From: Lytechinus pictus
Taxonomy: Eukaryota
Direction of reading: 5' to 3'
DNA length: 64,000 bases
Assembly (NCBI RefSeq): GCF_037042905.1
Contig: NC_087251.1
Span: forward strand, 45,076,001 to 45,140,000
The translations under genes and the position numbers were made by a program. Each line of letters begins with the position of its first letter. Positions within the stretch are counted from its first letter, which is position 1. The notes below the pieces were generated by a model, which saw only the letters and a list, made by a program, of their open reading frames with translations, had not been told where the DNA came from and searched no databases. Positions 2,384-37,931 of this stretch are shown here, piece by piece.

Positions 2384-2600
2384 TGTGAGGCTGCCTCTTT
2401 CTCTTAATATCTTTTTACAGAAACGAAGTGCTTCAAGGCACAACTTAAGAACTACTATCAGCAATTTTTTATCCGAAATTAGCAATATCATATCAAAGCG
2501 TTATTTATGTGACACTTTATTTAGTGAGGCTGCCTCGTTCTCTTTATTTGTTTAAGATACAAAAAGACAAAACTTAAGAAATACAATTAGCAATTTTCCA
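2384..2600 (+). repeat. Diverged direct duplication, period ~140 bp
   Basis: GTGAGGCTGCCTC..AACTTAAGAA..AGCAATTTT occurs twice. Confidence 0.7.
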
Positions 2601-9479: not shown

Positions 9480-9848
9480 GGTTTGCTCTTAAGAATTTTA
9501 GAACTTTTGTTTGCCCCATGCCATAATTGGAACCTCGAAAGGTTCTTCAAACAAGCAGAAAGGGTTCTGAACTGTCTTTTAGAACCGTTTTTTTCTACTT
9601 TTGTATATAACATACAGGGTTCTTGATGAAGTGAAGAAACTTGCCAATTTTGTATACACTGTACAACACATAAGGTTCTTTACAACATCAATGGCCCCAT
9701 TGGTTGTGTAAAGAGTCTTAAAGGGTTCCTTCTAGAACCAAAACAGGTTCTAAAGGACTGTTTAGAACACTTATCTGCTTCTTTGAAGACCTTTATAGGT
9801 TCCAAATATGGGACAAAGGTTCAAATCAGCACCTTTTTGCTAAGTGTG
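9480..9848. mobile_element. Degenerate element with GGTTC/GAACC repeats
   Basis: About ten GGTTC/GAACC motifs; ends AGCACCTTTTTGCTAAGTGTG. Confidence 0.5.
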
Positions 9849-11584
9849 TTTAATCATAATTATTGCAAAAGCAGCATCACACATCAGTTGAATGTCGATG
9901 GCAAAATCGCATTTATAGTCAGAATTGGGAATGTTTATATTTCACCATTTACAAAGGCACTTAACCCTTAACCAACTTCTGATTAATAAAGTACTAGCAA
10001 TATTCAATTCAATTCAATGGTTTCTTTATTAACATAAACAGAATGCACAAAGATCAAAAACAATATTTTTCAGTTTACATTCAAAACAACAACAAAATGT
10101 ACCAATACATACCAGCCAAAAAAACAACAACAACAACCTGGGGATGGGGCCACGGATTTTATGATACTGTATAAAGTAATACTGATAATTCATTTTAACA
10201 ACTGGGGATCTAATTATCAAATAGTGTAAATCATACATGAAATTCTTCAAGTCTTTTCTCTCTTACCAGTGTGCCTTCATCTGTGGCTTCAATAAGATCT
10301 TCAGTGCCTATGCACATGAATATAAGCACAACATAACCCAGAGGAAAACAGAGTCTTCTCTTACAATCTGAAAACCCAGTGGGTTACTGTAAGCCTACCA
10401 TGAAACGCTGCATCACATTCAATATTGCCCGATTGATAATGAGGATGTTTTATTGAAAGAAAACAAATTTCAGAAGAAACCAGCCTCGAATGCCCCGAGG
10501 TATGTATGTGGCCTTAGCAAGTCTACCGAGAGCTAGCCTCTAAATGTCGCCTCGTTGAAGATTGCACATACCCCAGATGTAATATCTAGCAGATCTTCAT
10601 CATTAGAATTAAGATTTAATTTGTGGCTGTTCCAACTATCTACGTCGAGATTAATGTGTCTGTCCCACGCTCATCCGGACTGAAAGACCTACATTCATAT
10701 GTGGCATTCTCTAGACTTACAAAGGAATGTAATATTAATACATGGTAGGTAGGTTTAGGGATACTCTTGTTGGTTGTGCCAGCTGCATGAAAGATAATGA
10801 ATACTCTATAAAAAATGAATAATAACAAAATAATAATTTCAATGAGAATGAATTATTTGCATTGAAAAGGGAAATTACAATATCAATATACATATATATA
10901 TATGAATTTAATTCCTTTTCATTTTTTTTTACATTCAACAATTTTAAATGCAGCCTTCTCCCTCACCCCTCAGCATTTGCTAGGTCACAGGGCAGAGAAT
11001 ATTGTATACTTGTGGAAATATAGCTGGAAGATAATCTGAACTTTTATCAATGTCGTCAGTCCCGGGGTGTAATGTCTTTAATGATACCCTCCTGCCTCTG
11101 TCGGATCAATAGTTTTTCATCACTGAACAGCCTCGGACCTGATTAGATCTTCAAGCAAACCAACCCTGGGCCTACAAAGCCTGAACCGAGTCAGTGCATG
11201 GGTAACAAGATAACAGCATAATAGGCCCGGCCCCGGATGGGACGGGTCACGTGACTAATGTTGCCGACCTTTGACCCCCTCATCAGGCTGGATTATTTGC
11301 CATGGCGGCCGTGGTGTTCAATGGGATTGGGATTGAAGGGGTGAACTTTTAACCTGAACTTGGCTAACATAAATGATGCAACCCAAGCGACATACATGGA
11401 AAGCTCTTTCAAGACGGGTTTCACCCATGTCGGATAAGATCCCGAGTCTCGTCATCACGGCGAACAATGGAAGAATCATTCCCATTTCTTCCTTTAGAAG
11501 TTTGGAACTACTTTCTACTGCTGTTATTTAAACTGATTAGAAGAGATCATTCTTTGAAGAAGTTCTTCAATTGATCTAGTTCAT

Positions 11585-11735
11585 GGTCCCATTTCATAAA
11601 GACTTGTTATAATAACAAATGCCTAATTTCTATAAGAAGTTTGATACCAGCCTATTAAGGTGAATGATTTCAGTTACAGTAGGTTTTAACTGTTATTTCA
11701 AATTTGTTATTATACAAGTTTTATGAATTGGGCCC
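11585..11735. mobile_element. 150-bp MITE, copy 1
   Basis: GGTCCCATTTCATAAAGACTTG ... CAAGTTTTATGAATTGGGCC; collinear with 15823-15969. Confidence 0.75.
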
Positions 11736-13729
11736 CAGAACATAATATGGAAAAATATATGGGGTAGAAATTTTCAGAAATATGTGAGGGTATAGAATAT
11801 GGATTCATTCTGACGTCTCTTAATTTCTGTGCTAGCTAGAAACAAGAATCTAAGTGAATTCTAGTTGAAATCTACAATGGCAAAACAAGAACTGAAGAGG
11901 GGTTTATTTGTTTACTAACCTACCTCCATACAGAATATACATACCATTAGTATTTCATTCTTCATCTGAAGCCCTTTCGCCATAGGCCTCAACAGGCAAA
12001 TATTATCTACATATTATCTTTTATCTGAGATATCCTTTTTCGCATTTTAAAAGTAGATATATGACTTCTGGACTCGTTCATTGAATCACTTGATGTAGAC
12101 ATATATATGTTTATCAGTTTCTGTACATGTTTATCAGATTATAAACTTGTTCATGTCTATACCCGTTCAACCTATATTGGAATAAATATTGAAATCATGC
12201 TGGGGACTCCAATGCCCCTCCCCCCTCTCTACTCCAAAAAGAGAATGAAACTGAAAGGAAGAAACAAACACATGTCTACAAACACATCTGATAATAAAGC
12301 AATGGAAACACTGATCCTGGTATGATTATCACCAGACCTGACATAGCATCAACTTAAATAATATAAAAATACATAATTTAGCACCCAGGATAATTCCCAC
12401 CTTCTTCCACCCCCCCCCCCCCCTCCTCATACAGAGTCCCTTGCTAGGCTTCTACTTTGTACTTTGTGCTACCAACTGTGATATGTCTAGACACAATATA
12501 CATACAGGAATATCCAACGTGACAATGGCCTTTGGGCTGTTGTGGTTGCATGGACTAGTGCCTAAGTTGAGAGAGTGATTAGGGTTCTATAAACAGGGGT
12601 ACTTAACCTTAACTGGTGGACAATTCTAACTGTTTACCTGTATACCATGACAACGTAATGTATGCCATAATTTCATGACGTACGAATGAACTTTCTAAGG
12701 CAAAGTGTATTTGTCTGATACTGATATTATTATAGGATTTCTGATCAATAAATACTAAAAAAATATGATGTCTTGTGATATTGACATTATTGAGTAAATG
12801 CATTCTTGGTGTTTTCTACCAAATACATATCCTATAGGCCTACTCATGCAATTACAATATGCAAATTTTCCTTATCATCTAGTATGATCCAATTTAAATC
12901 AACGCCTGGAGTTACAGTAAATTCCCCCCAAAGTACTTTACACATCACAATACCAATTCATTGTATTAAATTCTGTGAAGATAGAAGAATATACATGTTT
13001 TCATATGAATAAAAAAATGTATATGACCTAAGTGCGACTGCTAAAATAAAAATCTGTTTTTATCAGACAGATTTTTTTATTTTACATGAAAATTATTTAT
13101 GATAGGGAGCCAAATCAAAGTGAAATTACTGCATTCCTTCTTTCTTTTTATATACCAAGAACAATCATTACAGTCAGTTTTCATATTCTTCCAAAATGAC
13201 ATGAAAAGAAGAAAACCAACAGTAATTCCACAACATGACTTTCCCTTTAATAATCTTATCTTTCTTAGCATCTGTTTATTTCTTTTCTTTTTATTGAATT
13301 CTGATAAAACAATATTTGAACTATCTCTTTCTATTGTGTCCTATGTCATGGGAAGCTTATCACATTCAGACGTTGATCAAACATTGTCTGCTATTTTCAA
13401 ACACTGGTGTACAATAAGAACATATTTAGCATGAAATGTATATCATCTATAAAAATACATAATCACGATAAATATACATAATACAATATCAGACTTGAAT
13501 GTTTCCAGGTCCAACATAATGCTTTAAAATTTTATTTGTAGGAATATTTTTTAAAGATTTTTTTTTTCAAATTCCATTACAGTGATCATCAGTTGATAAA
13601 CTTTACAATTTACAGGCCCGGGAGTGTTTCCATCTGTTTTTATTAGCTTTTTTAGCAAATTTTTATATTTTATCTGTCAATATTAAAACAAATTATATTA
13701 AAATCTCTTTATATTTCTATAAGGCATGC

Positions 13730-14638
13730 TGAGGGCTAAAATCAACCCAAGGCCACCTAAAGCCATGGCCTCCGATGCCCTAAGAATGGCCTTGATGCCC
13801 TTCTAAATATGTGTGGATTGAAGGACAAAAATAAGTGCCCTTTTGCCCGGGGCCTTGGTGCCCTGCAGTTATCCAGTGCATGTGTCCCATCGAAAAGTAC
13901 ATTTTACTAGTGATATCCTATTTTAATGGCCTTGGATACCCCTTAAGACAGCACCACCTTCCCTTTCCCTCAAAGGGCAAGTCCACCCCAACAAAAAGTT
14001 GATTTGAATAAAAAGAGAAAAATCAAACAAGCATAACACTGAAAATTTCATCAAAATCGGATGTAAAATAAGAAAGTTATGACATTTTAAAATTTCACTT
14101 ATTTTTCACAAAACAGTTATATGCACATCCTGGTCTGTATGCAAATGAGGGGACTGATGATATCACTCACTCACTTCTTTTTGTATTTTATTATCTGAAA
14201 TATGGAATACTCTAATTTTCTCCTCATTGTCATGTCAAACAAAGTTTTATTTCTCCCTAAACATGTGGAAATCCCATTGTTTAAACACATCTTTGTGGTT
14301 CAGTCAAGTTGGTCTTTATTGTCAAATCTGTACAAATTGAAATATTGTATAATTCAAACAATAAAAAAACAAAAGAATGGTGAGTGAGGGACATCATCAA
14401 CTGTCTCATTTGCATGTCACTAAATTGTGCATATAACTGTTTTGTGAAAAATAAATGAAACTTTAAAATGTCATTACTTTCTTATTTCACATCCAATTTT
14501 GATGAAACTTTCAGTGTTGTGATTATTGAATTTTTCTCTTTTTATTCAAATGAACTCTATGTTTGGGTGGACTTGTCCTTTAAGTACTTGCCCTATGAAA
14601 AATTGGCCTTGCTCCTTTGAATTCTTAATTCAAACCCC
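13730..14638. mobile_element. Older GCCC/GGCC-rich element split by the family A MITE
   Basis: Repeated TGCCC and TGGCCT motifs on both sides of the 13974-14579 insertion, ending AATTCAAACCCC. Confidence 0.45.
13974..14579. mobile_element. Kolobok-type MITE, family A, copy 2
   Basis: Collinear with copy 1 in the same orientation; flanks TCAA/TTAA. Confidence 0.9.
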
Positions 14639-14762
14639 ACATGCTTATCTGTTGAGATACAGGTACATCTCATTGTCTGGAATTATTCAAAACCATGGAA
14701 CTATTATACTACTGTGATAGTAGGCCAGTGTTCAAACCAATGGTAGACAGGAGCAACATATA

Positions 14763-15261
14763 TGCTTTTCACACTGTACTTTTTTTCCTTTACCCGGGAA
14801 ATTGGTGGGGCTAAGGGGGGGCCTTAGCCCCACCAATTTCCCGGGGTTAAGCTTAGCCCACTTCGTTTTCACACTACGTTTTAGCAAAGTGGGCTAGCAC
14901 GGTAAATAGTACGGTACCATCTGGCCCTGCAAAAAAGCAGGGTTAGCCGGCTTATTGTGGTGCTAGCACCACAATTGCGGTGCTAAGAGATGCAGTGTGA
15001 AACGAAACCGGACTAAGGAAAAGTGGGGCTAAGCAATAGCCAATCACAGAAGTCGAAATTGCACGCTAATCACGCTCTGTATGGTAAAATCATCAATATT
15101 CATGAGCTGTGGGATAGTCCGGGGTTAAGGCGTTAACCCCGGCTAAGCAGATAGTATGGGGTTAAGAAAGACAGTGTGAATATAAAAAAAGATAGTATGG
15201 GGTTAAGGATAGTCCGGGGTTAAGGATAGTATGGGGTTAAGGAAATGCAATGTGAAAAGCA
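14763..15261. mobile_element. MITE with an internal perfect hairpin and 17-bp subterminal repeats
   Basis: TA|TGCTTTTCACA ... TGTGAAAAGCA|TA; 24-bp perfect stem at 14793-14845; five GATAGT(AT/CC)GGGGTTAAG units at 15113-15241. Confidence 0.85.
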
Positions 15262-15822
15262 TATGAATGTCTTTGCAGGGTAATATAGGTCATGTTCAAT
15301 AGTTTGCATTACAATGCACTGCACGGTGGACCTTGATCCATGATCATTTCATGTATGTATTAATGTAAACATTCGTCAATAATGGATGCATGTGATTAAA
15401 TGATCAAACTCTATTCTTACAGAGCACATTATCTCCCCTGGCAAAGTGCTATCATTATGTGGTTTATCAATCATGAAATAGCATTAAATATGATCTAAAG
15501 ATTAAAAAATCCATGCTATTTACTTCTTTAAAAATTAATGTGCAGAGAAATAACTTTCTTTTAAAAAGGACATTTACAGAGAAGGCAATGTTTCTTGACT
15601 TTCCATTGCCTGAGCATGGCTAGCCAGGGCACAAACTGCCACTTGGGGAGACATTAATCTGTACTTGTATTTAGCCACTCTGTACCCAGGTTTGAAATGG
15701 TATCTGGCTATGTTAGAGTTTAATTGCAGAGATAAAAAGGATGATTGGTGTCAAATATGTCATAATTATTATTCATTATCATGATTACCATTGACACAGA
15801 TCTTTAAGGAATGATCAATCTG

Positions 15823-15969
15823 GGATCCGTTTGATAAAGACTTGTTATCATAACAAATACACAATTTCTAATACAAATTTAGCATCAGCCAATTAAATTG
15901 AATGATTTCAGTAGCTTTAAACTGTTATTGCAAATGTGTTATTAAAACAAGTTTTATGAAACGAGGCCC
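15823..15969. mobile_element. 150-bp MITE, copy 2
   Basis: Same TIRs and internal sequence as 11585-11735. Confidence 0.75.
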
Positions 15970-16342
15970 TTGGTGTCTGGCTCCCACACTTACATCGAAT
16001 GTGTCAACAAATCTAAGAGCAATGGAGATTAATGTAAGAGTTTGGTCCAGGTTTGAATTATCATTTTTATTCTTATCTCTAAATTACAAAGTCTTTTAAT
16101 TAAATTTGCTTTGATGTGCAGAAGAGTTGGATTCAAAGTCCCTGTGAAGATTACAGGGTCACAGACTTCACCTTGTTATCTGTTTACAATCTCTCGTTAT
16201 CACCCTTTACAACTGTGTGCACTCTTCCATGCTTATGCACATTAATGAATCTGCTTCATACTTTGAAAAGTTCAATCAACTGTGTATTAACGTAGGTCTT
16301 CATTTCTTTGTGAATTATCGGATCACCATTTTTATATATATA

Positions 16343-16659
16343 CCTGGGCAGATCCAGGATTTTCCGGAGGATGGGGCTTTTTGTACAGGAAAATTTTGAC
16401 AACCCCCCCCCCAAAAAAAGTTCTTCAATGCCAAATCGAGATCATTTGTTCCAGGAACTATTTGACAAGCAAAAAAAAACGGAAAAATAATTTCTTCACT
16501 ACCAAATCAATGTCATTTTGTTCCATGAACAATTTGACCAAAAAAAGGGGTCAACACTGGCCTATGCATATTCCACTAAAAATACTTTTTGTGCATCTCA
16601 AAAGGGGGGCAAGGGCCGGATGTGCCACCCCCCCCCCCCCCCCCCCCGATTCGCCACTT
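16343..16659. mobile_element. CAG..GGATC-terminal MITE (degenerate)
   Basis: Termini CCTGGGCAGATCC / GATTCGCCACT with poly-C; right end nearly the same as 35971-36022. Confidence 0.65.
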
Positions 16660-19600
16660 ATATTAGTACCCCAAAAACAATGATACCTTTAAAACGCAAA
16701 TCTTCTAGAAAATTTCCTAACATGATTTTTTGGTTAGAAATAATATTTGAGGGTTTTCTATCAGCTTCCACTTATGAACTAATTATTCTCACAGCTCAAA
16801 AAAACTCAAAAATTTATGAAGGTCTCAGACTCTCAGAGATTTCAAAAAATACATGGATGACTATTTGTTTTCTTAATAAAGCATTATTTTTATCCTTCAT
16901 ATAAAAGCCCAATTTGCTGTTTTTCTGCATGTAATTGTGGAATAAAAACAAGGAATGACCATGATCAAATACAAGTTAAAAGAGCTTCTTTTTTTAACTC
17001 AAATAGATTGATATTTTCCCCTGATGTTTGAAAAGAAACTTCAATACAACAGTATTCTGTGCTATTGTATCCAAAAATCATTTGCTATATTCTTTTTAAG
17101 CAAGCCCATCTGGAATGGCCCTAACTGTAACATATCAATCCACCTGTAATAGGATTAAAAACAGTTATACCAAGGGATTAAAATGTTATCAGAATAGTAA
17201 CTGGATATGAAGGATTAGGATTAGAGTATTAGAGGTGTAAGATAAGGTAACTGAGAAGACAAAATTCCACTCAATGAATGTTTACTTAGTGTAGAGTCTT
17301 GTGTCACCATATTCTAAAGTTGATTGATTAAAGACAGTAGCAATAGCTTTACTTTGATAAATCTACAAGGGATTAATCACATTAATGAGAGATTAATGAA
17401 GAGATTAGCACACAGATGAGCATATATAGGGAAAACACAGGAAGCAATATCATAAGAGCAAATTATGCAGGCAAGCTCAAAAGTTAGTGGCATGCATGTG
17501 TTATAGGAATAAGTTATATGTACGAGGAGAGACTTAGGATGCTTGAAAGAAAAATATGATATTATACTTATGTACTTGTATATGGGTGCATTAATGTTTA
17601 GGTATATTATGTATGTGTATGTATATTGTATGCATTTATGTATCTCGTATCTAACATTTCATCCAAGATTGGTATTTTTCTTCTGTTTTTTTTTTCTTTT
17701 TCTTTGTATTTTTTTTTTTTTTATTTGGATACCTCGTTGTTACTATGTTATGTTTATGTTGTATTATTTTTTTTTCTTATGTTTCTTTGTTTTTTATGAT
17801 GATCCTTAAATGTCAGGATTTTATATCAATAAACTTTTGAATTGAATTTGAATTGAATTGAATTGAATTTGCATGTAGAAATGAGGTTTCAGGAACTATA
17901 GGAAAACCAGTTGTGACTGATTTTGCAAGAAATAAAACTGCAAGATTTTTTATATTATAACAATATAGATAATGGAGAGTGAGCAAGAAACTTACACTTT
18001 GTAATGCACAATTGAAGAAAACCATTATCCACCTTTATCATATTTCATGTAGATATGCACAAGTTAGTAAGCATCAAGAGGGGGTAAATATATTTTCTCT
18101 ATTTCAACCCATCCCCCCCCCCCCCCCCCATTCCAAGAATGTGGCAGAAACTGACACATTTATCTCAGACAAAACATTATACATAATCATCATTATAGAA
18201 GTTTTTCTTCAAAAATTTTCTCCAAAAAGAGGTAATACTGATCAAAATAATCAATTCTCATTTTGTTTATTTTCAGAAACAAAGCAAACAATATTGACTA
18301 CACCTCCAACCTTTTACTTTGTACATGAATGGTGTTTTTTCTGCAATTTGATAATGTACAATTTCTATTCAATGCATTTCATATTGAAGAAATATGATGT
18401 GCCAGGCAAGCATATATTTTTTTTAGATAAAAGGCACTCACATGAATGGAAATATGAAAACCACTAAGAATGCCACAGATCAACTTAGTAACGGAGAAAA
18501 GCAAACTTCTTACCACTAAGCTAACCAATAGAAACCACCAACCTCATGATCACAGTCCCTTATACTCTGATTCATGTTAGGTTTCTGCTCTGGACAGCAC
18601 CCTACCCGCTATACTTCAATATCAATCATCACACTTTCATTATAATACTAAATGCCCCCAAAACATAAATATAATGTGTGAAGACAATGTATTGAAACTT
18701 GATATGGAAGTTTACAATATCTGTCTCTTTATTTTTAAGTATATCCACAAAGCTTCACAAATCTAAATTGGGTTTTTCAGCTTGAATATAAAGACATCCC
18801 ATTCTTATATTCAAATTGAACAAGAAAACGTCATCATTTTTCGAAAAATAACGACCTGCAATTTTAAAGCTTAAAGTCTCTTTAATACTATCAAATGAAA
18901 GTCATTATCATACAATGATTTTTGCAGGTATCAATATTTCTGTGTCAATAGCTACAGGACACTCTTCATACTCTGAAACTGTGGGGGAAATGAAGTAGTT
19001 TGTATTCCTGGTGGTTTTAAAAAAAAGACATTAAAAGATATCATTGAATTACACGGAAGGAAAATGCTGTGTGTAGTTACAATTGCTAACACCAAAATGT
19101 TCATAATTTAAATGAGATTATTCTCTCCATTTTCAAACCATAGAACTGTGCATGAATATCCATCAGGACTTTAAAGGATAATCTTCCATCATATATTGAT
19201 TTAGATATAGATTATCATTCAAAATCATTACAACATAAACATTATCATTGGATATTATAAGCAACAAACGAATGCAGAGGACAGAGGGGGGAAATGAAAA
19301 TTGAGTTACATATCCAGCCCTAAAGTGGGCAAATAACGGTAGACTGTTTTTCTCCACGGTGAAATCTAAGCTTACCCTTGTTGAATAGAGACCCACGCTG
19401 ACTTTTCACGCCCCGCCTCAAGCCCAACAATCGGTCCCTCCACCCTTTTATCATCTCTCCCAAGCCTGCTCTTTTTTCATGACATTTGATACTACCAAAG
19501 GAGCATTCCATCAAAGAATATGAAAACTCCTCCTGCTTGTTTATTAATGAATGGACTTCAAATCACAAACTGACACATCTCTCTTAAATCGTGGATTTGG

Positions 19601-19851
19601 GTGCTTTGTTTTCAGGTTCATCAATTCACATGCCACTTCATTTTACCCCCCCCCCTTTTTTTTAACATATCACTTCTCAAAAAGAATCTGAAATCCAATT
19701 ATGATATAAATATCACATTAAATTTGATGTTCAATATATATCCCATTAGCAAGAGGAATATTTGAAATATTAAAATATTCACCGCAAACCAAAACTAATA
19801 TAGAGCAGTAGATAATGAAAATACTGTACAATTACCATGCTGTGTCTCTAA

Positions 19852-20017
19852 TGGGGCGTTGCAATAAACTTACGCTCAATTGCCAATCGAGCGCAAGTCC
19901 CCAAATTAAGCATATTGGTGAATTGAAAGAAAGTTTAGATGCAACTGAAAGCAAAAAATTAACTACAAATGATTTGCACTTGATTTTGTTTTAGATTAAG
20001 TTTCTTGCGGCATCCCA
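19852..20017. mobile_element. Short degenerate MITE
   Basis: GGGGCGTTGCAATAAACTTA ... TAAGTTTCTTGCGGCATCCC imperfect TIRs. Confidence 0.55.
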
Positions 20018-20679
20018 ACAGACAATGCTCAATTCAATAAATAGGTTCCCAAGAATTAGCTTTATAGAAAGGAAGCTTAATAGTAAGTGAAGTATTTAAT
20101 TCATGGTGAGAAATATTAAACAAAGTTTAAAAATATTCAATCAAAGCTTCACAATGACAATATATCTTTTCAAATATTGAAATTACTTAATGTAATTGAG
20201 TTTTATTTTTAAAATATATATTGCATTCTATTACCACTATTGATACAATTAAGTTTTCCTACATTTTAACTTTGATATTGCTAGTGGTAATAGTAGAATG
20301 CAATATAGCAATATATATTTTAAGAATAAAACTATCTTTGCATTGCATAAAGAATATTCATTCAATGCTTTGTATGAATTCTATCAATGTATTGATTGTA
20401 ATGCTTTGGAATATTTTGGATAATTAAAAGAAACTGTAGAAGAGGACTTGAGAATTTGCATCAACAAGTCATTTAGTTTTAAAAAAGGGTCAATTCATCA
20501 AGTAAAGATTCTTTTATGTTGAACCGTTTATTTTTTTATCTTGAAAAAAGAGTATGAATATCAGATACTTACTTTTTTCTTCATTTAAAGACCTAACCTA
20601 AATCATCTCTTATTTTATTAATCATTTTCAACAGTTCCATTTTTATATACAAAACTAATAAAAGTTTTATGCATTTTGA

Positions 20680-20902
20680 GGGGGCAGCATGGGCTATGGG
20701 GCAAAATTTCTAATAGATTGCAAGCAAGCAAGCAGAAATTTTGACCTTTTTAATACAAAATCAAATTTAGTGACAAATTTTTACATAATATTCAGAAAAT
20801 GGTATATTTTACCTCTTTTTCTTTCATTTTTCTTGGTCATGAATAGTTACAGGGAGGGGTCCATGTCCCTCCCCCCCCACCCTCCCAGTCTGTAGACCGA
20901 TG
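20680..20902. mobile_element. Degenerate copy of the same hAT-type MITE
   Basis: TTTTCTTGGTCATGAA...polyC...TCTGTAGACCGATG matches the end of 38804-39068. Confidence 0.55.
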
Positions 20903-21225
20903 ATCCTTAGACAAAACCTGAAGCAAATCATGCATCTCTTCCTTTAACGATGTTGGGATGAGTCACATGTGATTTTGTGATATAAAGACGCAGTATCAGG
21001 AGACATTCCAGCTAATGTAGCATTAACATGATAATTCCTTTCAACAGACATTACCTTCCCTCCTGAAATCACTTGGAACCTCAAGAACTCTTCTCATGCC
21101 ATCCAACTCAGAAGCACATGGATATGAGCCATCGGGAATCTTAAAGACTCATGAGTAGGCCTATCCAGGAATCATAAGTATGATTATGACTATATAATGC
21201 TGATGAGAAGATCATCACTGCTTAA

Positions 21226-21829
21226 AGGGATGGTCCAGACTGGAGACATTTATATCTCAATAAATACAGTAAAATTCACACAGCAAAATGCTGAAAATTT
21301 GATCAAAATCGGATAACAAATAACAAAGTTATTGAATTTTAGAGATTTGCATTATTACGGTGAAACAGTTCTAGGCATGTCTTCATGAATATTCATTAGG
21401 GGGTTGGTGATGTCATATCCCCACTTGTTCTTTTGTATTTTATTATATGAAATTAGGTTTATTCAAAAATTTTCTACCAAGAACTAAAACAATTCGATTG
21501 ACAACTGATTAAGTACATTAGTTATTTATTGCCACGACTTATTTCATCATAATGGAGACACATCATTTACACATGTATGGAAAAATGAAACATTTAGGAT
21601 TTCATGTAATAAAATAAGAAAAAGGAAAGTGGGAATGTGACATCATCAGCCCACCTCATGAATATTCATGATGATGTGCATATAACTATTTTCACAAAAA
21701 AATTGATAAACTTTTAAATTCAATAACTTTGTTATTTGTTATCCAATCTTGATGAAATTTTCAGCATTTTGCTCTTTGAATTTTACTCTATTTATTTGGA
21801 TATAAATATTTTCAGCCCAGACCATCCCT
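21226..21829. mobile_element. Kolobok-type MITE, family B
   Basis: TTAA|AGGGATGGTC...GACCATCCCT|TTAA with long TIRs; shares GAAAATTT(C/G)ATCAAAATCGGAT and TTCTTTTGTATTTTATTATATGAAAT with family A. Confidence 0.9.
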
Positions 21830-22244
21830 TTAAGAGAATGGCTTGAATAGTATGTCTATCACTTATATTTTTGTGGAGCTTCTTTCTAAGCTCACAAGCC
21901 AAACTTTGCTACACTATAATACAATTTGGATAGGACCCTATGAGAATTTCACAGGCTCCATGTCAACTTTCCAGGGCTTTGTGGGCATTCTTTTTTTTGG
22001 GGGGGGATGCAGATTCACCCAAGCCCCTGTTTGACCCCCAAAAATGTTTGGAAATTGTGGACTAGCACCTGAAGAAATGATATATGAAATACTCACACAC
22101 CTGACCTACCCCGCCCCCCCCCCCCCCTAAAAAAAATCTATAGAGCGATTAATTGATACAGCTACTGAGCAGTAAAATAATTTATTTATGTTTGTTTGCT
22201 TAGAAATTCATTACAAAAACGAATGAAAATATATATATATATAT

Positions 22245-22757
22245 AAATAAGTTAACAAAACATAGGAAGCACCAGATTGTTTGTTTGGGGTAATATTTAA
22301 CAGTTTAATAAAATATATATATATATGGATAAATTACAATTTTAACAAGCTTCATCCACGAAAGGATTTCTGTATGAATTAGAAAAAATAGCTAAGAATA
22401 GACCCTATTTTTCAATTTCATAGGAAGCACCAGATTGTTTGTTTGGGGTAATATTTAACAGTTTAATAAAATATATATATATATGGATAAATTACAATTT
22501 TAACAAGCTTCATCCACGAAAGGATTTCTGTATGAATTAGAAAAAATAGCTAAGAATAGACCCTCTTTTTCAATTTGATTTAAATGTTAAAAAAACGATT
22601 TCATATACCAAATGTTGATTGAATTTGATATTAAAACAAAATTTCAGTAATTAAAAAAATTTCAAAAGATAGAATCAATCACCAGACTGCAAAATAAGTT
22701 AACAAAACATAGGAAGCACCAGATTGTTTGTTTGGGGTAATATTTAACAGTTTAATA
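22245..22757 (+). repeat. Near-perfect 158-bp tandem duplication plus a third partial copy
   Basis: Units start at 22261 and 22419 (one mismatch seen); partial copy at 22692-22757. Confidence 0.95.
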
Positions 22758-25309
22758 TATTTAAAAATATTTAAAAGTTTAACACTTTCAGGCAATCTAT
22801 GACTGCAATTTGATTACAACAATATAAACAAATTAATAATGTTCCCTTTTTATTCATTTATGTTCGAACATGCAATTTAAAAGAAAAGTAAGTAATAAAA
22901 TATGTATTTATTTATCGTGCAAAAAATATTTCTATGCATTCTATTTCACTGTGAGAGCTCCCTACATGTAGATGATGTGCTTACTACTGGAATAAATACG
23001 TTTTTAAGTTTAGTTTGAAATAAGGTAGAGTTGTTTAATTCCTAACATTGAGACACTGATATTCTAGGTATGTTAGTTGGGTTAATTAAATCTGATTTGC
23101 TTGTAATGTTGCAGTTCATTTGGGTTGTGGATTCAGGGGTGTATTCAACAGAACATGGAGTGAAAAGAATCTGATCAATTGAAAGTGATTTTCCAAATAA
23201 AGAGAGTCCACAGTATAATAAATAGATTGCATTTCAAGGAGGTGCTATGCATCTTAGGACAGCGGATCTCGCGGCACTTTGCAAGAACAAGAAGCTGACA
23301 TTTTGAACCGTCAATTAAATTCTCTTACTGATTACACAGGCAGGAAACTCAACTCTCCATCAGCCTTTCCCTAATACTCTTTGGAGAGAGGGTCAATAGC
23401 GGAGAGTTGTTGCCATCGAGCAAATTACTCTCTCGGCCGGCCGGGCCGAAACACTAGAATAACTACTTTATCCTGCCGATTGGAATGTCAGACTGATGGG
23501 ATATAAGGTTCACTAATCCAGCCCTCTGCACCCCTACGGCTGGCTGATACGGGGCTGAGCCGAGGGTTGAGTTTCCATCATGATGTCATGTACACACAAC
23601 GTTCACCACTATCCGTCCATGTGCAATATACCGTGCTTCTACGCGTGAAACTGTGTCCTGTATGTCCAGAGTGGCACAATCGTCAAGAGCACAGCTTTTT
23701 AATGGTTAACAACGTGATATAATCACATTGCATTTGAATCAATACTACCATCTGAATATACTTCAATATCAATGAAATATTTAGGCAAGGTTCAATATCC
23801 TTACAAATTAGTTATTTTTTAAATCGCAATTCAAGTGGCAGACACTTGCACATTTAGGATAAGTGTCATATTCTCACAATGCATTTTTATCGTAATTCAA
23901 ATTACAGACATTTTGCAAATTCAATGAATGGAGATTGCTACAGACATAGCCTAATCCATCTTGTCTTCCATTTCCACTTAAAAATTGTGGGATATACTTA
24001 TCGTGGCATTTCTTTAAAAAAATCTAAGATTTCATCAGTCTCTGTATTTTTTTTCACAATGTCATTACAGCCTGACTTTAGCTTTGGCATAGAATTCCCC
24101 CAAATGTGTCAATTATTATTCCAATAACACGAATGGGTATGCCCTAAAGCAAGTATAATGTGGAGAGGATATGAAATAAAATTGGGTTGTAAAACATTAT
24201 GCAATGCAGTATTAAGCCAACCACTTACGAAGTCAGGGATTTCAAGGGTTTTATAAGCAAAAACACAGTACATGTAGCTGTAAAACATGAAATAATTCAA
24301 ATCCAACACAAACGAGACAATATATTTAATAAAGATATATCTCATTGATTCACTCATTCAGTCATTGAACAAATAGTACTGTATAATCTAAAACCTAAAA
24401 ATAAAAGAAATGATCTGGTGGATAAACGCAAAATCATTTGATGAATTCAGCTTCAAAGTGGTTATCACATAGGGGGGGGGGTGTTCCAAATAAGGATTGC
24501 AATTTATTTCAATAGATTTGACTATTAGTCGGGTGCATTGCTATGTCACTGTATAACTTAGAAAACATGCTAATGTTGCACTTTTGAACATTAATTTTGT
24601 CCAAGTAAATTCAACAATTCAAAAATAACTAGCTTCCTCATGTACATCCATACTGGGGAATCTAATTAATAGATAATACCTAGGCAGCATCTGTACATTA
24701 CTGTTCACGATCAATGGTGCAATATGGAAATCTGAATTCAAGGAAAATATCACACAAGCAATTATTATTGATATATCTCCCAAGAATTAATTCAGCATTC
24801 AAATATCCCTCAGAAGTTACCATAAAACATAACCCAACACACCAAGTAGGTTATAAACAGAAGAATTTCATGTGTACATAAAATGTCACTGTAGTCTCAC
24901 ATGAAAAAAAAATCTGTCTGGGTCTTTGTGTGGGTGTGTACAATAAAACCTTTACAAAGTCAACCTGTTCTACTCTACCCCTCTATTTGCAAAGCCGTTC
25001 TTGAAATATGAATAGCAGTGTGCTAAGTTTCATCCATGTCTACAGCTGACTCCGGTTTCTATTGTTGTTTTGAATATCATTTCATACATCTAGGTTGTTG
25101 ACTACCAAACAAAAGATGCACCCAAAAACATTCGCACAACTGTCTGAGCACATTCATGCTACCGACGGAACGAAGTGATGTTGTACTTCGTGTCTGATCC
25201 AGGCAGGGCAAAACACAAAATAAAGACCAACATTGCAATATTCAGACTAACTACAAATATGTGTGCCTCCCACAAAAAAACAACTTGACTGAATAAATGA
25301 TAAAACATC

Positions 25310-25463
25310 GGGGCCCTGTTGTAAAAAAGTCACCATAATTGCTATCCAACGGTTAATATGTTAATAATGCTCAAATGCAAATCAAAGATTTCTTGAAAAG
25401 TTTCCATACGACATGATATTGGAATCAGTTATCACATATTGGTAAATTTATGCAATAGGGCCC
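25310..25463. mobile_element. Short degenerate GGGCCC-terminal MITE
   Basis: GGGCCCTGTTGTAAAAA ... TTTATGCAATAGGGCCC. Confidence 0.5.
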
Positions 25464-25879
25464 TGGTGAACTCTTTCAATTAAAAAAAAAAATCTTCTCA
25501 AACTTGCAGTCTTGTCATTTCTTGCTTTCTAACATGCATTGCATGTGAGTTTTTGTGGGGTTTTCTGGAGAAGGGTGGTTTTTTAATCAGATCATGTTAG
25601 CACCCCACCCTATTGAATATTTTGTACTTTCTGATTAAGCATGAAAAATAAAAGACAAACTCTATGTGGGGCTCTAATCTAAATGTTTACAGTTTGACAT
25701 CAATATAACAATCTGATATGAAAACCAAACCACACAAATATGTTCATAAAGCAAGTATAACCTTTTTCAGTGATTACTTACTTGACCTTTTTTTAATATG
25801 TTTATTCTATACTTTGAACCTTATAATTCAATGATTTTTTTTTACTCCATGTTTATCACAATTAAATCATTAAATTTAA

Positions 25880-26135
25880 CATATTCAATTTCTTGGAAAT
25901 TAATCATTTTGGGGGAGTAAAAATGAAAATGTTATACAGATTGTAGTATTCCATGTGCATGATGTGGTAATCAAGCTTTTGAATATATACAATTTATCAT
26001 GAGTGACTAGGGAAATTTTATATTACTTTCAAACTTAAAAAAGTTGAATGAAATTTTAATTACAAAATTGTAATTACAAAAATAGCTTTGAAGAATTTGC
26101 AGAGTTCATTTAGACAATAGATGGAAGGGATGCTG
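25880..26135 (+). mobile_element. Possible highly decayed L1/Tx1 C-terminal remnant
   Basis: Short translated patches (LIILGS, GKFYITFKLKKV, KIALKN) in the expected order; many disruptions. Confidence 0.3.
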
Positions 26136-27411
26136 TTATTATATTTGATACAGAAGATATTCGAGAGTCACAACTGCAGAATAAGTTTTGAAAAGTTATC
26201 TCACATTAACCATCTAGGCAATACTAGAATGCTGGTAGACAACCAAGCCCCTGTATTCTATATATTTAATAAATAATCAATACACAAATGAATGGTTGAC
26301 CAATTTATAAAACTGATATTAAAACTATTTTGAAAAATTGAATACACTCTCAAACAAACTGAATCAATTCAATTAGTTGCAATACTTCCAATTTAAATAT
26401 TTTCAAGGGGTAGACTAATTATCTATTTTTTACTCTATGGGTATATCTTAAATTATCATCCTGAAAAAATGACTTTGACAATTTCCATCCATATCATTGA
26501 ATAATTCTAATACAGTAATAAAAATCTAGATTTGGTCTAAAAAATGTAAGAAATCACAGCTGCTCCCTGGTTTTGACAAACAAACAGACACTAAAATTTT
26601 AGGTAAATATCAATTCCACACTTCAGGGACATTTCAAAGAATTTCAATTTGACTTAAGTGCAAAATATAATTTATCCATTATTGTTCCCCATATCTTACA
26701 AAACATTTGTAATTTCATATCAACGTTGTATGTTTGGAAGTTTGTTTGTTTGTTTTTATGTCTATATAGTTCGCACTTTGCTTCTCCTTTTTAGTTTTCT
26801 TTTAGTTCTTTTTCTCATGTTGTTTTAGTTATATATTTCTAAGTTCTATACATATTTCAGATGTAAATAACTATACTATTCAATAATTTGGTGGGGATGG
26901 TACGGTTCATGAACAAATTAGAATGACTTCATTGAACTAAAATGAACTAGATTGAACATTTCAAGCCTGTGAAACAAATACAAATACATTGGCAAACAAT
27001 CGTAAGTGATGACAGGAAAACATACAGGAAGACCACAGAGCATCCAGTATTCGGGGCTTCCCGGGTCAAATAATCACTTTGATGATCTTATTCACATCAG
27101 AAAGACAAAAATCAAAACAACTAAGTGACATCTATACAGGGTCAACACGGATGCCCTGCTTCTTGTTGTACATTGCATAAACATGTGCAAAGGAAACAAA
27201 CATTGAACTACACCAGCCATCTAATTTTTTTTTTTTTTACATTCATGATACCATCAATTATTATATTAATTCAAATACTGAAATGTCAGTGATTGGGCAA
27301 CATAATGTGAAACAAGTATTTATGTTTTGACTTCATAGCAATGTAAATTATAAAGGCAGGAATAACTGAATCAACTCAAAAGTTGTTATGTCAGTGCATG
27401 TGTAATCCTTT

Positions 27412-28090
27412 TTTTAGGCATACTTGAATCCCCAGATAGAATTTACTATAAAAACAGCACCTTAACTGAATCAGTCTATATTTTTTCATATGAATTATGA
27501 TTGTAATTTTCCTTTCCAGTTTTTAAGATACCTAACTTTACCAATAAAACAGGGTCTTCAATGCAGATTTCTTTTCCTCCAGTCCAAGATCTCTGTCAAG
27601 TTTTACAGATTCAAATATAATCCATTTATACAATAATATAATACCAAGCACTTGTTTACCCTTAATTCATATAATTACCATCTGCCTTTATCTGAAAAGA
27701 TCTTTTCAACACTTCCGGCAATAACTGAGAGGATCCAAAGTTTTTATATCAGTGAATATAGTATTTTAGGCATACTTGAAGTTATAAATTACCATAAAAA
27801 CAGCAACTTAACTGAATTGGTCTATATTTCTTCATATGATTGTTCTATTCATTTCCAATTTTTAAGAACCTTTTAGTAAATTCACCAATAAAAACACAGC
27901 CTTCAATGCAGTCTAAGATCTTGAAACCCCCAGTTAGAATTTACCATAAAAACACAGCATAACCGAATTTGTCTTTATATTTCTTCATTCATATGATTAA
28001 AACTTTCCTTTCCAGTTTCAAAGATCTCCCGATATTCCCAAATAAAACAGGGCCTACAACTAATATTTCTTTTTTCTTCAGTCCAGGATA
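27412..28090 (+). repeat. Three diverged ~170-bp direct repeats
   Basis: TTAC(C/T)ATAAAAACA..CATATGA..TTTCCA..AATAAAA..CA order repeated from about 27412, 27764 and 27920. Confidence 0.8.
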
Positions 28091-30019
28091 AGTTTTAAAG
28101 ATAATCCTTATACAAAATAACACTAGGTAGTAGGTACTTCTTCACCCAATGTTCCTACATTATCATTTGCCAGTAAAACTCAAGAAAATTTCTTTTCAAC
28201 ACCCGAACATCGCTTTTAGAAGTTTTTTCGTCTACACTCCCCTCTACCTAGCCTACAGTAAACAACTCGTTTTAAGGAAGTTCCGCTATACAGAAAACTA
28301 GATTGGCTCAGAATATAGCCCTGTACGGGAGTTACGTTGTACTTAGAATGCATGTTGTCGGGAGGGCAACAACTAGATTAGGCTGAGAATGTTACCATGT
28401 ATGCATTGGAGTAATGTTGTAGAGCGTCGCAAGGGCAAGAGAGCAGACATTGTGACAGTCATGTTCAGTCTGTCTGGAGTACATAGGTCAGTAAGCAATG
28501 ACCTCATGCTTCAAAGTTGGATATCTTGGTATAGGAGGCATTATAGACAACAACCAAAGTAACCCGGAAGGGAAGACATTTTCAAAAACTCGTGCGAGGG
28601 GCAGAGGTTTCGTCTGTGATGTACGGAGAAAGCGAACTTACACGAATGCCGGGAATAAGATTTTGGAAGGATTTTTTTAGACATAAACTGATCCATGATT
28701 TCTCTATGACAGTCAACATGATTGTCAATCAATGACTAGGCTAAAAACGTCTTAAGAATCAACATAAATTCTAAACCAAATAATATCGCTATAAACCTTA
28801 ACCCATGCTTTTGAAGTAAAAAACCCTCCTATGATCCCTTCTCCCAATCTCTCTTCCTTTCTCTCTTTCTCTTTTTTTCTCTCTTTCCTTTTTTTCCTCT
28901 TTCTTTCTGCCATGATATAAACTTACTCTACCGATTATAAAATTCAGTTGTAAAACTCTGCACTGCTTAGATGACATAATTTAAAAAAATAACATCAATA
29001 AGCACTGCATTGGCTGCAGTTTGAGAAATTGGAACCTTTAACCAAGGTTATTTACTTTAGTTGAACTTAGTATATTAAAAATAATAAATTTAAATCTGAT
29101 CATTAATTTTCAAAGAATTCATTGTCAGATAACATGAAAGAGCACATACAACACTTGAGACATGTGTGAAAGATGCAACTGAATATCTGACTTTTTTCAT
29201 AAAGTTTATGGGTAAAGGTTCCAAGAAAAATTACAAATTGAAAAATTCATATCCAAAACTTTTTTAAGGATTTCAGTGAACAGATAAAAATTTTGAGGAA
29301 GAGATTGAGTTAATTTCTTTTAAAACCATGATGGTACAATATATAAGGAAATGGAGGATAATGTGGAATTTCACCATAAATATTGTATAGTCTAGTTCAA
29401 ATATCAATATAAATCTTCCTTTTCATCAATATTTGTCTTTTGGGGCACTAATTGGTTTTCCTTTTTTGTACAATACTTTAAAACTACTTGTTAAGCATGA
29501 AATGGGATGATTTTTGTTCATTCATTCAAATAAACATTTATTTTCTTCCATTTTCACGAAATGTCATTTTTTTCAATATAAACTATGAAAATTAATGTCA
29601 TAAAAGAGTACAAATTACATAACAGATTAGTTAACAGAAGAAGGCAATAATTATTTAATTATTGTAGGATACAATAACTGAATAGATTTCTTAATTGAAA
29701 TCTAACTGCATAAGAGTAAATCTTATATAATAGATAAACCTATAGGTGTTTGCATGATCAAATCATAACAATTACCAAGAGCAGGAGAGAGATAGAGGGG
29801 GTGTAAATCTTATTAAAATTATCATATAATCATTAATCAGAACTCATATTATAAAGTTCACTACAAACTGTTTTCAGATTGGCTGTTAGAATATGACAGT
29901 TCAATATAATAATTCACATTATTAATGAATCTTCGTCCAAACTTTTGACAGGCTCTAAGATGTTCTGTATTGATTTGCACAAATGCATTTCAGAAAGTAA
30001 TGCCTCCCATCACAATAGC

Positions 30020-30252
30020 CAGGATGTGAAATATCTCTGATTTTTTTTCTATCCATTCATATAATTTCCAATAACAAATCATGATGTATTTTCAAGAATA
30101 TTTTCACCAACTTCAGGGATGTGAAATATCTTTTTTAAAATTATTCATATTATTTCCAATAACAAATCAAGATGCATTTTCAAAACATATTGTCACCAAC
30201 TTCAGGTATGTTTTTATATCTATGATATTTTTTTCTATTCATACTGTTTCCA
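30020..30252 (+). repeat. About 2.5 copies of a ~90-bp tandem repeat
   Basis: ATTTCCAATAACAAATCA..TCACCAACTTCAGG is repeated. Confidence 0.85.
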
Positions 30253-30899
30253 CGGGCAAATTAATGGATTAAAACCCAATGCATTTCAATAAAACCTCAG
30301 CGGTTGAATTTATCTAGACAGTGAACAATTGCACTATCTCTAATATAGGCCCTCTGACACCTGGACTGCCCAGACAGATCAATTCAACTGACAATATTTT
30401 AAAATCAAGACAAGTAACTATTCCAGAAGGAGTCATTTTGAAACCCAATCATAATAAAAGGCTATAAACTTGCAAATCTTGAAAATACATCATTTTTGCA
30501 AAGCAATGCAGTTCATTTAAACTCAAAGCACAGCATTTATGTCTTCATGATTTTCTTTTTTCGTTTTTTTCGTTTTTTCCGTTTTTTTTTCAACTTTCTT
30601 TCAAGAGTGCATTTTCAATAAATTATAAATCATGCAAGCTTGAGAGTTAGAAAACAGTTAGACTGAGAGTTCTAAATAAAAATTTTTGTATGTTAAACAT
30701 CTTTTGCATTTTTACATTTATTGAAACAAGTATGACAAAAAAATATATTTTCAAGAATATCTATATTTGTTTCAAAATGAAGATGCAGTTCATTTTAGAG
30801 TAAGATTTGTTTCATCATTGAGTATGAATAATAAGTCTGAATTGCATTTCAGTTGATATTTTCCAAATGTATCACCATTGTCAACAGTCAAAAGAAAAT

Positions 30900-31606
30900 A
30901 ATGAGGAACTTGTTCTTTCTGCATAAAAATATTAATTTTCTCAAAAGACAAATACCCTCTAAACAGACAAACTAACATTGTTGGAAGTGACGCTGAAAAA
31001 AATATTGGTTTATGTTTTTTATTTTTAAATTGCTACTCTGTAAGTACATTTTTCAGGATTTCAAGTTATTTCAGTATGAAAAAAGAATGTTTTTATTAAA
31101 GGATATGGTTGATTTTATATCAAGTTCTTACATTATCAACTTTCATCATGGAGTAGATAAAGAAGAATCTAAACATATATTATTCTGTATGCACAATGCA
31201 AGATTAAAGCTTGAAGGCCAAGCATATTACAAGTACACAATTCAGTGACAATGAAATTTGTTTTGGAGTTATAACACTCAATTACTTCCATCTTACCAAT
31301 ATTATTGTGTTGTTTGCAAAATATTTCATTTATTCATGTAAATACAAGAATATCAAACCCACTTTTGCTCATTTTATGCTTGGTTTGGAAAATATAGAAA
31401 CAACCAAGAGAATCATTGCTTTTAAACGTAATTTTGGTGACCGTGCATCAAAAAACAATTGAATATTTTGTATACAAAATGAACCATTTATTTGAATTTG
31501 TTTAAAATGTATGCTATTTTTTCATTTACAATGTATCTGTGCATGTGATACTCATGTATGGAATGAGTTGAGAAATATAAAAAATCTTGAAAATGAAAAA
31601 AAAAAA
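30900..31606 (+). mobile_element. Decayed 3' fragment of an L1/Tx1-clade LINE
   Basis: ORF 31211-31462 EICFGV..TNIIVLFAKYFIYSCKYKNIKPTFAHF..RIIAFKRN resembles the Tx1/L1 ORF2 C-terminus; frameshifted FQY..EESKHILFC upstream; A-run at about 31596-31606. Confidence 0.7.
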
Positions 31607-32109
31607 TTATAGGTCAATATATATCCTTCACGAAAATATAAATTATCCTTTAAAATACAATTATGAAAATAGTGTTTTTATATCTTCTATAGATTTACAA
31701 TTAGTGCTAAAATCAGAAGGGGGCTCATGAGGTAACATGGAGACATTCTCCTGCTAAAACATGTCAATTTTTTATTGAGTGAAAAAAAAAATCAATATTT
31801 TATGGAGAGAAAAAAATGATAAGGGTAACCATGCAAACTGTTTGAGATGACTATTTGACCTATCATGGTAATAAAAGTGGTCTTAAAAACATATTAGGAC
31901 TGTTGCTCACTGCAGGTGGTGAGAAGTCTTCTTTGCACCACTGGCTACTTGCAAGTTGATTCAGCACATTCACTTGATTTTTCTATATACAATATACTTA
32001 TTCAAATCATAACGTGGATAATATGACTAGATTTATTCCTTTTAATATTTATACATAGTAAAACTTTGTTTAAAATTGTATATAATGTTGTTTACCAGAT
32101 GAACATTAC

Positions 32110-32288
32110 AGTATTTGTTTAACAGCTAAAACAACCATGCTTAATTTATTGAGAATAAAGTATTAAAATTAAACTTTGATTTTTTTTTAGATATTATACA
32201 ATTATTGTTTAAACTGTTTAAACAACTACTGTAAGGTTCACATAGTTAACAGCATTGTGTAAATTTCAACCAGTGTCTTTACTGTGTA
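32110..32288 (+). repeat. Dispersed repeat, also at 34985-35120 and 35121-35226
   Basis: AACAG(C/T)TAAAACAACCATGCTTAATTTATT ... TTTACTGTGTA is shared. Confidence 0.7.
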
Positions 32289-32843
32289 GGTTTAGTATAA
32301 AAGTGAACTGCCTTTAAATGGAATGAAGAAAAGAACTGATATCTTCTTCAAGAAAACACATGACTAATAGTGTTAAGACTTTTATCAAGGTCAACATACT
32401 GTTATCTTATGAAGATGTTATACATTCATCATATCAGAAGAAAACTGAAGTATAAGCCAACGTGTAATGTTATCATCGTTATTTAGGATTTTCAACATGT
32501 GTGTGCACAGCTGACTGAAGACATTTAGCCAAACCATAAGATTAATCTCTTATGTGATATAAAATGGTATACCTGTTGCACCAGTGCAGTGATGCATTCA
32601 ACTGCATCACACATACAGATTAATACTCTTTCACAGTTGCTAGCTATTCATGCATCATTTCAAACACTCAAAATCAAATTGAAATATCATTTGAAACATA
32701 CATATCCCCCTCTCCCGAATACAAATTCCATTCCCTTTCTCACTAGTATCAAAACTCTCTAATGTAATGTTTTATTTCCAATCATCATAAACAAAATATT
32801 TCAAGGAAATGAGATGAATTATGGTAAAAATAATGGCACGCAC

Positions 32844-32900
32844 CTTGCATTTTTCTCGCTCCACGATTCGATGTCGTACCCAGGATCGGCTTGTGGGATG
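32844..32900 (-). CDS. Putative second coding exon, 57 nt, phase 2-2 (S)IPQADPGYDIESWSEKNA(R/S)
   Basis: Acceptor TCTCTCTACTTTCATTGTAG| with a pyrimidine tract and donor AAG|GTGCGT. Open in the frame set by exon 1; GC/CpG-rich against AT-rich flanks. Implied intron 1 is 587 nt. Confidence 0.65.
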
Positions 32901-33487
32901 CTACAATGAAAGTAGAGAGAGAATAGTAATGCTGGTTAGATTGAGAGATGGAATACTACTGAAGCAAAATACGAGGTGATAGACTCTGACAAAGAATCGC
33001 ATGACTTAATATTTACAGGCACGTACAAAAACATTGAAGGAGACATTGTGATTTTCTGGCGGGGGTACGTGTAAGAATCTTAAAAAGCTCGACATGCCAG
33101 CCACCGGGTGATTATCGGTCATCGAGTACATGCAAGCACGCCGCCCCACGCCAAAGCGTTAGCGTGAGCCATAACCTGCCGTCTGCTTCAGCTAAGCTAG
33201 CGAGCGTGCCTCCTTCGTCTAAACATGTACGTTCGATCACGTACGAAATATGACCGAGATCGGGAGAGGGGAAACTCAAGAAAAAAAAAAGTATGAATGA
33301 AATGGTATTGGGGGATAGGTGCATCGTGGACATGCATATGAGGATATGACACTGCTTGCACGTGGTGGATCGCTGGTAGACAGCATTACTACGTGCACGA
33401 ATGTTGGGATTGATTTAAAGATATATTGTATGTTTTCTCCCTCTCCTTTCAAATTGAGTGTGAGAAGAGAGATGTTGGCAACAGTAC

Positions 33488-33546
33488 CTCGCCGGCGCCA
33501 TGGGGTGCAAACGGGCGAAGTTCAGCACAGGATGCGTCGTGGCCAT
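33488..33546 (-). CDS. Putative first coding exon of an unidentified multi-exon gene (MATTHPVLNFARLHPMAPA + 2 nt)
   Basis: ATG at 33546 in good context (GAAATGG) with an in-frame TGA upstream. 59 nt ending at a phase-2 donor AG|GTACTG. Lies in the most CpG-rich unique segment and splices in frame to 32844-32900. Confidence 0.6.
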
Positions 33547-33554
33547 TTCAACTC

Positions 33555-33635
33555 TCACTCGCCTTTCGTCTCCCAATAAAAATTCTCTCCTTTCTCAGTG
33601 CAGGTTGAAATCGTCGATATTGGCGCCCTGGACAT
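33555..33635 (-). other. Upstream ORF (26 aa, MSRAPISTISTCTEKGENFYWETKGE) in the putative 5' UTR
   Basis: ATG with A at -3 (ACAGCATGT); its stop ends 8 nt before the main ATG, in a different frame. It is the 3' part of track ORF 33555..34022. Confidence 0.4.
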
Positions 33636-33759
33636 GCTGTATTGTGTTGAGATACTGGACGGTCTTAATTGATGTAAACAAATATATTTACGATCCAGGG
33701 CCCGCAAAACTCCTGGTATATCACTTGCGAGCCCGTTAGCGTAGCAGACAAGTTCACAG

Positions 33760-34020
33760 CCCGTTGAATTTAAGCCGATCTTCCGCGTATGTATATACGG
33801 CACATGTGTATTGTTATCAATATATTGCGCTACGTTGGTCGGGGGTACTTGGGATAACATGGTAGCACAGCATTCATGTGATGAAGCATTAGATTCGAAC
33901 GTGACGTCACGTTGCAACCATGCTTGAGTTTGACCTTCACTTTGACCCGACGCAGAGACTTTGGGATGTCTCTCTCCCTCCCCTAATCCTCTCTCTCTCC
34001 ACTTCTCTTCCTCCCTTTTC
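33760..34020 (-). promoter_or_regulatory. Candidate promoter of the minus-strand gene
   Basis: TATATA at about 33792-33798, perfect palindrome AACGTGACGTCACGTT with a CRE core at 33898-33913, TGACCT/TGACCC half-sites at 33931-33948, and a CT/GA tract at 33969-34020. Sits at the CpG step. Confidence 0.5.
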
Positions 34021-34984
34021 ATGTTCTATTACATGAATGCCCTTGAAAATAAAATTAGAATATTTCTGTAGGTTGAAGTTGGGCATCATAGCATTGTTTT
34101 CATCATCATTAGTGCTTGGCGGCGTTGATGAAGAGATCTGATGGTGATGATTACTTTGATGACGATGATGATGATGATGATGAAGATGATGATGGTGTGG
34201 TGGTTGTGACAGCGGTGTTACAGCAACATTATATTCATGTTCGAGGTAAGTCGGGCTGATTTGATGTTTGCGTGATGTTGGGGAATATTGGTTATCATCA
34301 AAGACAAGAGGAAGAAAAAATGAATCGAAATTAAATTTATTTTGGATGTTTGCATTTGCTTTTAAGATTCGCCTTTTAATCACCTAAATGAGGGAAATAC
34401 TTTGAGTTAATTCCCTGGTTACATAAACCACTGATTAACAAAGAAAATCATTTATACCCAACCGAAGACTCTTGAAAAGAGTGACAGTGTCAACTTACAG
34501 CAGTCAGCAAATTTTTCATTTACGTCAACTTACAACCTATTACACCTTTCATATTCATTTCATATAGCAATTTCGATCCATATTCTGAAAAGTATAGTTT
34601 TGAATTTCTCCTGTCATCTTCATTGCTGCTCATGATACAGGCCAATCTTTATATATTTTTGGTTTTAATGAATCTCTGTTCTCTCTAATCAATATCATCA
34701 TTGTATCACGTTCATATTAACATTTAACAAATTAAATCAAATGACTCACAATACTCCTATCATATCTCACCGAAAAATTGGGTGAAATAAAAAGGTACAC
34801 TGTCATTTTAAGCACGTTGTTTAAGTCCGTCATCCTAACAACAAGATGTTTAATATTAAAAAAATAGGCCTATATTATCATTATTGTTATAACGTTTATA
34901 AGACATAGAGGCCTACCAAAAGGTACACCTTTCCACTAGGTTATTTACGCATTCCTGATATACTTATATAGCTGAAATTTACTA

Positions 34985-36875: not shown

Positions 36876-36907
<32 letters not shown>

Positions 36908-36925
36908 CACCACCACCATCATCAT
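36405..36925. repeat. Degenerate (GGT/GAT)n switching to (CAT/CAC)n
   Basis: Triplet periodicity with a strand switch near 36750. Confidence 0.85.

Positions 36926-37899: not shown

Positions 37900-37931
<32 letters not shown>

Follow-up and report, generated by a model that had tools for sequence, protein, structure and literature searches.

The two short stretches at 33546-33488 and 32900-32844 on the minus strand of the window (the whole 64,000-nucleotide stretch of Lytechinus pictus DNA analysed here) probably make up coding exons 1 and 2 of an ordinary protein-coding gene that is transcribed leftwards. The frame opens with an ATG at 33546-33544 (context gaaATGG), and the coding end of the likely first exon (33488..33546, minus strand) comprises 59 coding nt, i.e. 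19 codons plus 2 nt, ending in GAG in front of a phase-2 donor (GTACTG). The likely intron 1 (32901..33487, minus strand) is a GT-AG intron of 587 nt with a CpG-rich middle, whose 3' end consists of a pyrimidine tract and TAG; the likely exon 2 (32844..32900, minus strand) has 57 nt, is of phase 2-2, and ends in AAG in front of GTGCGT. Phase is 2 at both donors, and the joined frame is stop-free over 38 whole codons plus 2 nt. The 59-nt ATG exon and the 57-nt exon of the original prediction, with canonical GT/AG sites and matching phase 2, were confirmed in the sequence; the predicted 39-codon frame is indeed open, its count of 39 including the split codon. Skipping of the symmetric exon 2 would, as proposed, preserve the frame arithmetically. 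Both pieces escaped the open reading frame track because they are short and spliced.

The term micro-exons, used in the original prediction, is a misnomer: the 59-nt piece would be no more than the coding part at the end of a first exon, and exon 2, at 57 nt, exceeds both the 3-27 and the 28-51 nt classes. Measured against the classes of PMC12626424 (3-27 nt for microexons, 28-51 nt, and longer than 51 nt), exon 2 resembles microexons in being short and frame-preserving; it differs in falling into the class above 51 nt, and the 59-nt piece differs in that it would belong to a first exon.

The strength of the splice sites was estimated with a crude weight matrix of approximate base frequencies. 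Of the 3327 minus-strand GT sites, the donor of exon 2 belonged to the best 0.24%; of the 3126 AG sites, the acceptor of exon 2 belonged to the best 1.5%. The donor of exon 1 was weak (score 0.68), reaching only the top 7.8% of the minus-strand GT sites.

Base composition changes at the same place. The CpG observed/expected ratio was 0.42 over 1-32800, 1.01 over 32800-34100 (where GC was 0.45) and 0.75 from 34100 to 64000. A single change point fitted best at 32,800, at exon 2, and the ten best positions all fell within 32,450-32,950. The 1-kb blocks with a ratio below 0.5 were 24 of 32 on the left compared to 5 of 30 on the right (the blocks are not independent), with medians of 0.34 (n=32) and 0.75 (n=30), respectively. 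This places a CpG-rich, probable promoter beside a CpG-depleted body, as expected at the start of a gene. GC was 0.66 in the 59-nt piece but 0.38 over the 100 nt that follow it; exon 2 had 0.53, with flanks of 0.38 and 0.27; GC steps were present at all three intron-facing edges of the two exons. GC at third codon positions (GC3) reached 0.84 in the 59-nt piece, a value calculated from 19 codons only, compared to 0.44-0.56 in three rival upstream frames; in exon 2 it was 0.56, equal to GC1. On the minus strand G exceeded C in 25/32 left blocks and in 16/29 right blocks, and among eight poly(A) and splice motifs just one showed strand bias (p=0.043, uncorrected), the rest being not significant. 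The predicted gene start running leftwards is thus indirectly supported by the CpG change point, the GC steps, GC3 and the start context; the protein searches yielded no homologue. Sequencing runs were looked up as well, and no RNA run was listed for the region: 18 of 24 rows share part of 32700-33900, 14 of them only presumed to be RNA (shares of 0.10-0.28, two organisms), so that they weigh neither for nor against splicing.

We infer that a methylated gene body, starting at the two exons, takes up the left half of the window: 1..32843 (minus strand; CpG ratio 0.42, bounded by the change point) is likely to be mostly intron 2, with MITE-like repeats, and 33547..34100, CpG-rich and upstream of the ATG, is the likely promoter and 5' leader on the same strand (ratio 1.01 over 32800-34100). 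CpG depletion marks a methylated domain; the owner gene and its direction are not given by the depletion. According to PMC8291442 (Xu et al. 2019), sea urchin and other invertebrates have mosaic methylomes, in which promoters are hypomethylated and methylation is directed at gene bodies. The window resembles this pattern, with a CpG-rich start followed by a CpG-depleted domain, and differs from the cases of that paper in that methylation is here deduced from CpG depletion alone.

Under the preferred reading, Pol II would start a few hundred bases upstream of 33546, in the CpG-rich promoter at about 33.6-34 kb; the spliceosome would join 33488 to 32900, and 32844 would then be spliced to a distant exon of phase 2 on the left, for which 1696 is the best candidate and which would otherwise lie outside the window. 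The 38 residues would form an N-terminal leader of low conservation, and the CpG-depleted body would be that of a methylated, broadly expressed gene. If real, the two exons would complete or correct a single gene model at its 5' end and mark a promoter; they would also show that, where a genome is methylated in mosaic fashion, the CpG step can reveal a gene start without data other than the sequence. For the specialist this would be no surprise, and no long-standing question would be opened unless the gene were notable or alternative N-termini were used. The presumed promoter contains a perfect 16-nt palindrome at 33898..33913 (listed without a strand), whose core we take to be CRE-type; it is one of 4 perfect palindromes of at least 16 nt passing the scan filter in the window, and its core is one of 3 such cores, so it is a weak sign only.

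The proposed structure, a sea urchin gene that likely continues leftwards through a long intron, is a common architecture. According to PMC3460201 (Tu et al. 2012), internal exons of the sea urchin average 177 bp and introns 1753 bp, intron lengths are long-tailed and greatest close to the transcription start, and computational models often miss or misdraw the 5' exons. Two short exons ahead of a long intron, as proposed here, would agree with that account. The present gene would depart from the typical ones in the length of exon 2 (57 nt compared to the mean of 177 bp), in an intron of 31 kb, which would far exceed the mean of 1753 bp, and in that the long intron would be the second and not the first.

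The encoded protein was searched for in several ways. The exon-1 frame gave no candidate among proteins of 77-2000 aa; the exon-2 frame, compared with 1.84 billion representatives, gave 3 matches, all of them to repeat proteins, weak and summed over repeats, which were rejected as chance. Neither Pfam (18 frames) nor NCBIfam (4 frames) showed any match at cut-off, the ESM Atlas gave no usable match, and the PDB sequence matches (best E 0.48, to T7 lysozyme, followed by 0.66 and 1.4) were rejected. Metagenome contigs contained no exact match to the 21-nt exon-2 pattern, and none of their 594 pattern matches to the exon-1 frame was confirmed. These blanks carry little weight because each exon provides about 19 residues and the exon-1-frame search covered proteins of up to 2000 aa.

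Two resemblances were followed further. A likeness to the N-terminus of dUTPase, a short look-alike of its first strand and of motif 1, was rejected. No dUTPase was among the PDB matches of either exon frame, though the PDB sequences include dozens; there was no Pfam or NCBIfam match, and against a dUTPase profile the joined model had a local score of 16 compared to a shuffle mean of 18 (the profile, of 80 enterobacterial sequences only, has low sensitivity). The other is a possible likeness to the start of a SAM domain, whose first helix would be expected to continue with a W-hydrophobic motif in the next exon. Such a motif followed 31 AG sites, just one of which (24414) lay behind a fair pyrimidine tract, and none of the 31 was among the open-exon candidates; the exon in question may be beyond the edge of the window.

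The lack of a matched homologue in any protein or profile search would also agree with real exons whose main coding start is elsewhere, the transcript being either a 5' leader with an upstream open reading frame or a long non-coding RNA, and the main frame lying further left (e.g. at ATG 1791) or nowhere. Exon 2 is stop-free in all three frames, so that its frame is fixed by the choice of ATG alone, and its GC3 does not exceed its GC1; in addition, sea urchin genes can have a remote first exon that is untranslated, as described for blimp1 in PMC3460201. We nevertheless consider this reading unlikely, given the strong start context, the GC3 of the 59-nt piece and the matching phase, and the blank protein searches on which it draws are weak, with about 19 real residues and the proteins above 2000 aa skipped.

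Quite unlikely, in turn, is that the gene and its exon 2 are as proposed and the first exon ends at another donor, 33558, with the start at 33635, 33860 or 34022, or that both donors are used, giving two N-termini. Donor 33558 scores 2.26 in the weight matrix compared to 0.68 at 33487, and has phase 2 relative to an open frame of 156 codons, whose ATGs are those at 34022, 33860 and 33635. Spliced to exon 2 from this donor, the frame stays the same as in the main model and meets no stop; the ATG at 33635 has A at -3. Read on from ATG 33635 without splicing, the sequence gives a 26-codon upstream open reading frame (33555..33635, minus strand), which reaches the rival phase-2 donor and ends 8 nt before the main ATG at 33546. 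Against use of donor 33558, its frame lacks the codon-position bias of the 59-nt piece (GC3 0.44-0.56 versus 0.84), GC peaks beyond this donor and falls at 33488, none of the 43 candidates from the protein search with the upstream frame reached an E of 10 or lower, and other GC-rich patches in the window likewise contain frames of at least 150 codons.

A choice of acceptor exists as well. The tandem acceptor 32958/32955 (minus strand) precedes the exon-2 acceptor at 32900 by 58 and 55 nt and scores 4.44 at 32958, compared to 4.34 at 32900; its use would bring a premature stop after 37-38 codons. The bases that follow the tandem acceptor resemble the start of exon 2.

The proposal of two exons followed by a long intron leads to the exon on its far side. 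A strict exon scan passed none on the plus strand and, to the left of exon 2, none on the minus strand either. Under lenient settings, a search for stop-free exons behind a phase-2 acceptor returned 24 rows from 16 acceptors; the three highest-ranking rows start at 1696. The candidate exon 3 found there (1544..1696, minus strand) has 153 nt, phase 2-2 and a GC of 0.53; its frame stays open with or without exon 2, and its acceptor would give an intron 2 of 31,147 nt. The other 15 acceptors of the lenient scan were weaker, 13 of them being closer to exon 2. The candidate had no codon-position bias, the protein search with it gave 10 candidates with none at E up to 10, and neither Pfam nor the PDB provided a homologue. 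Extended to the right, 1791-1544 (minus strand) begins with an ATG at 1791 in a gaaATGG context like that of the main start, and runs for 82 codons plus 2 nt to a phase-2 donor. The segment 1696-1544 may consequently be read as the best exon 3 candidate, as the closing part of an alternative first exon that opens at ATG 1791, or as a decayed element. The predicted intron of 31 kb or more is plausible, and the best candidate would give that length; 13 weaker acceptors would make the intron shorter.

Taken together, these alternatives would make a bolder reading, which we regard as very unlikely: an unannotated, lineage-specific gene head with mix-and-match N-termini, in which exon 1 would have two phase-2 donors (33558 and 33488), the 57-nt exon would be optional, a rival acceptor that introduces a stop could tune output by decay, and 1791-1544 would be a further phase-2 first exon, all feeding into one downstream exon of a large protein. 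Very unlikely too is a chance meeting of GT/AG sites and an open frame in a patch of high GC, a promoter or an enhancer, the CpG step then having another cause. In its favour, shuffled 64-kb strands contained a mean of 0.375 exon-2 patterns, so that this pattern by itself is not rare, and 1/40 block shuffles of the minus strand contained the full model; this last result flatters the model and is suggestive only, because the thresholds were set after the fact at the model's own scores. Against it, the model coincides with an independent signal, the CpG change point, and the GC steps match the proposed exon edges. At those thresholds the two-exon model occurred a single time in the window, both strands having been scanned.

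The suggestion that the gene is a regulatory one, drawn from unique CpG-containing islands in a large intron, was not supported: the body is CpG-depleted overall, which in invertebrates fits housekeeping genes better than HOX or signalling genes, and 2 of the 7 CpG-rich patches of the left half are transposon-like. According to PMC8291442, housekeeping genes are usually hypermethylated, and HOX and signalling genes unmethylated. A classic developmental regulator would be expected to have a CpG-normal body, and the body here had a CpG ratio of 0.42, an indirect measure; PMC8291442 shows the pattern for HOX and signalling genes only. On this analysis the gene would more likely be broadly expressed than a classic developmental regulator.

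None of the 7 CpG-rich patches had a second copy in the whole window. Two of them (about 6635-7114 and 14793-15256) showed an inverted-repeat, transposon-like build and are likely remnants of DNA transposons with terminal inverted or palindromic repeats. A MITE-like element of about 600 nt, with inverted arms of about 150 nt, was present in three copies (5053-5646, 13969-14586 and 21221-21834). Given these inverted-repeat patches and MITE-like copies, the CpG-rich patches are not all regulatory islands. The patches at 11000-11560 and 23200-23720, which are CpG-rich, have no second copy in the window, hold no long frame and lie inside the presumed intron, are possible enhancers or alternative promoters. 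A further GC-rich patch (3650-4750) contains several broken frames of 80-100 codons, with no Pfam match at cut-off, and is possibly a decayed mobile element. On the plus strand, 55872-56183 had a weak match to the reverse transcriptase zinc-binding domain (E 0.003, below cut-off) and is likely a LINE fragment.

Rfam showed no match in the window. Two tandem arrays were also observed. At 22261-22757 a 158-nt unit is duplicated in tandem almost perfectly, and part of it is present a third time. A minisatellite at 36750-38160 consists of 6 units at a spacing of 200-263 nt, with a conserved 24-nt core in a (CAT)n matrix, and translates to His-rich peptides; its spacings are all 2 modulo 3, so successive units shift the frame and coding is unlikely.
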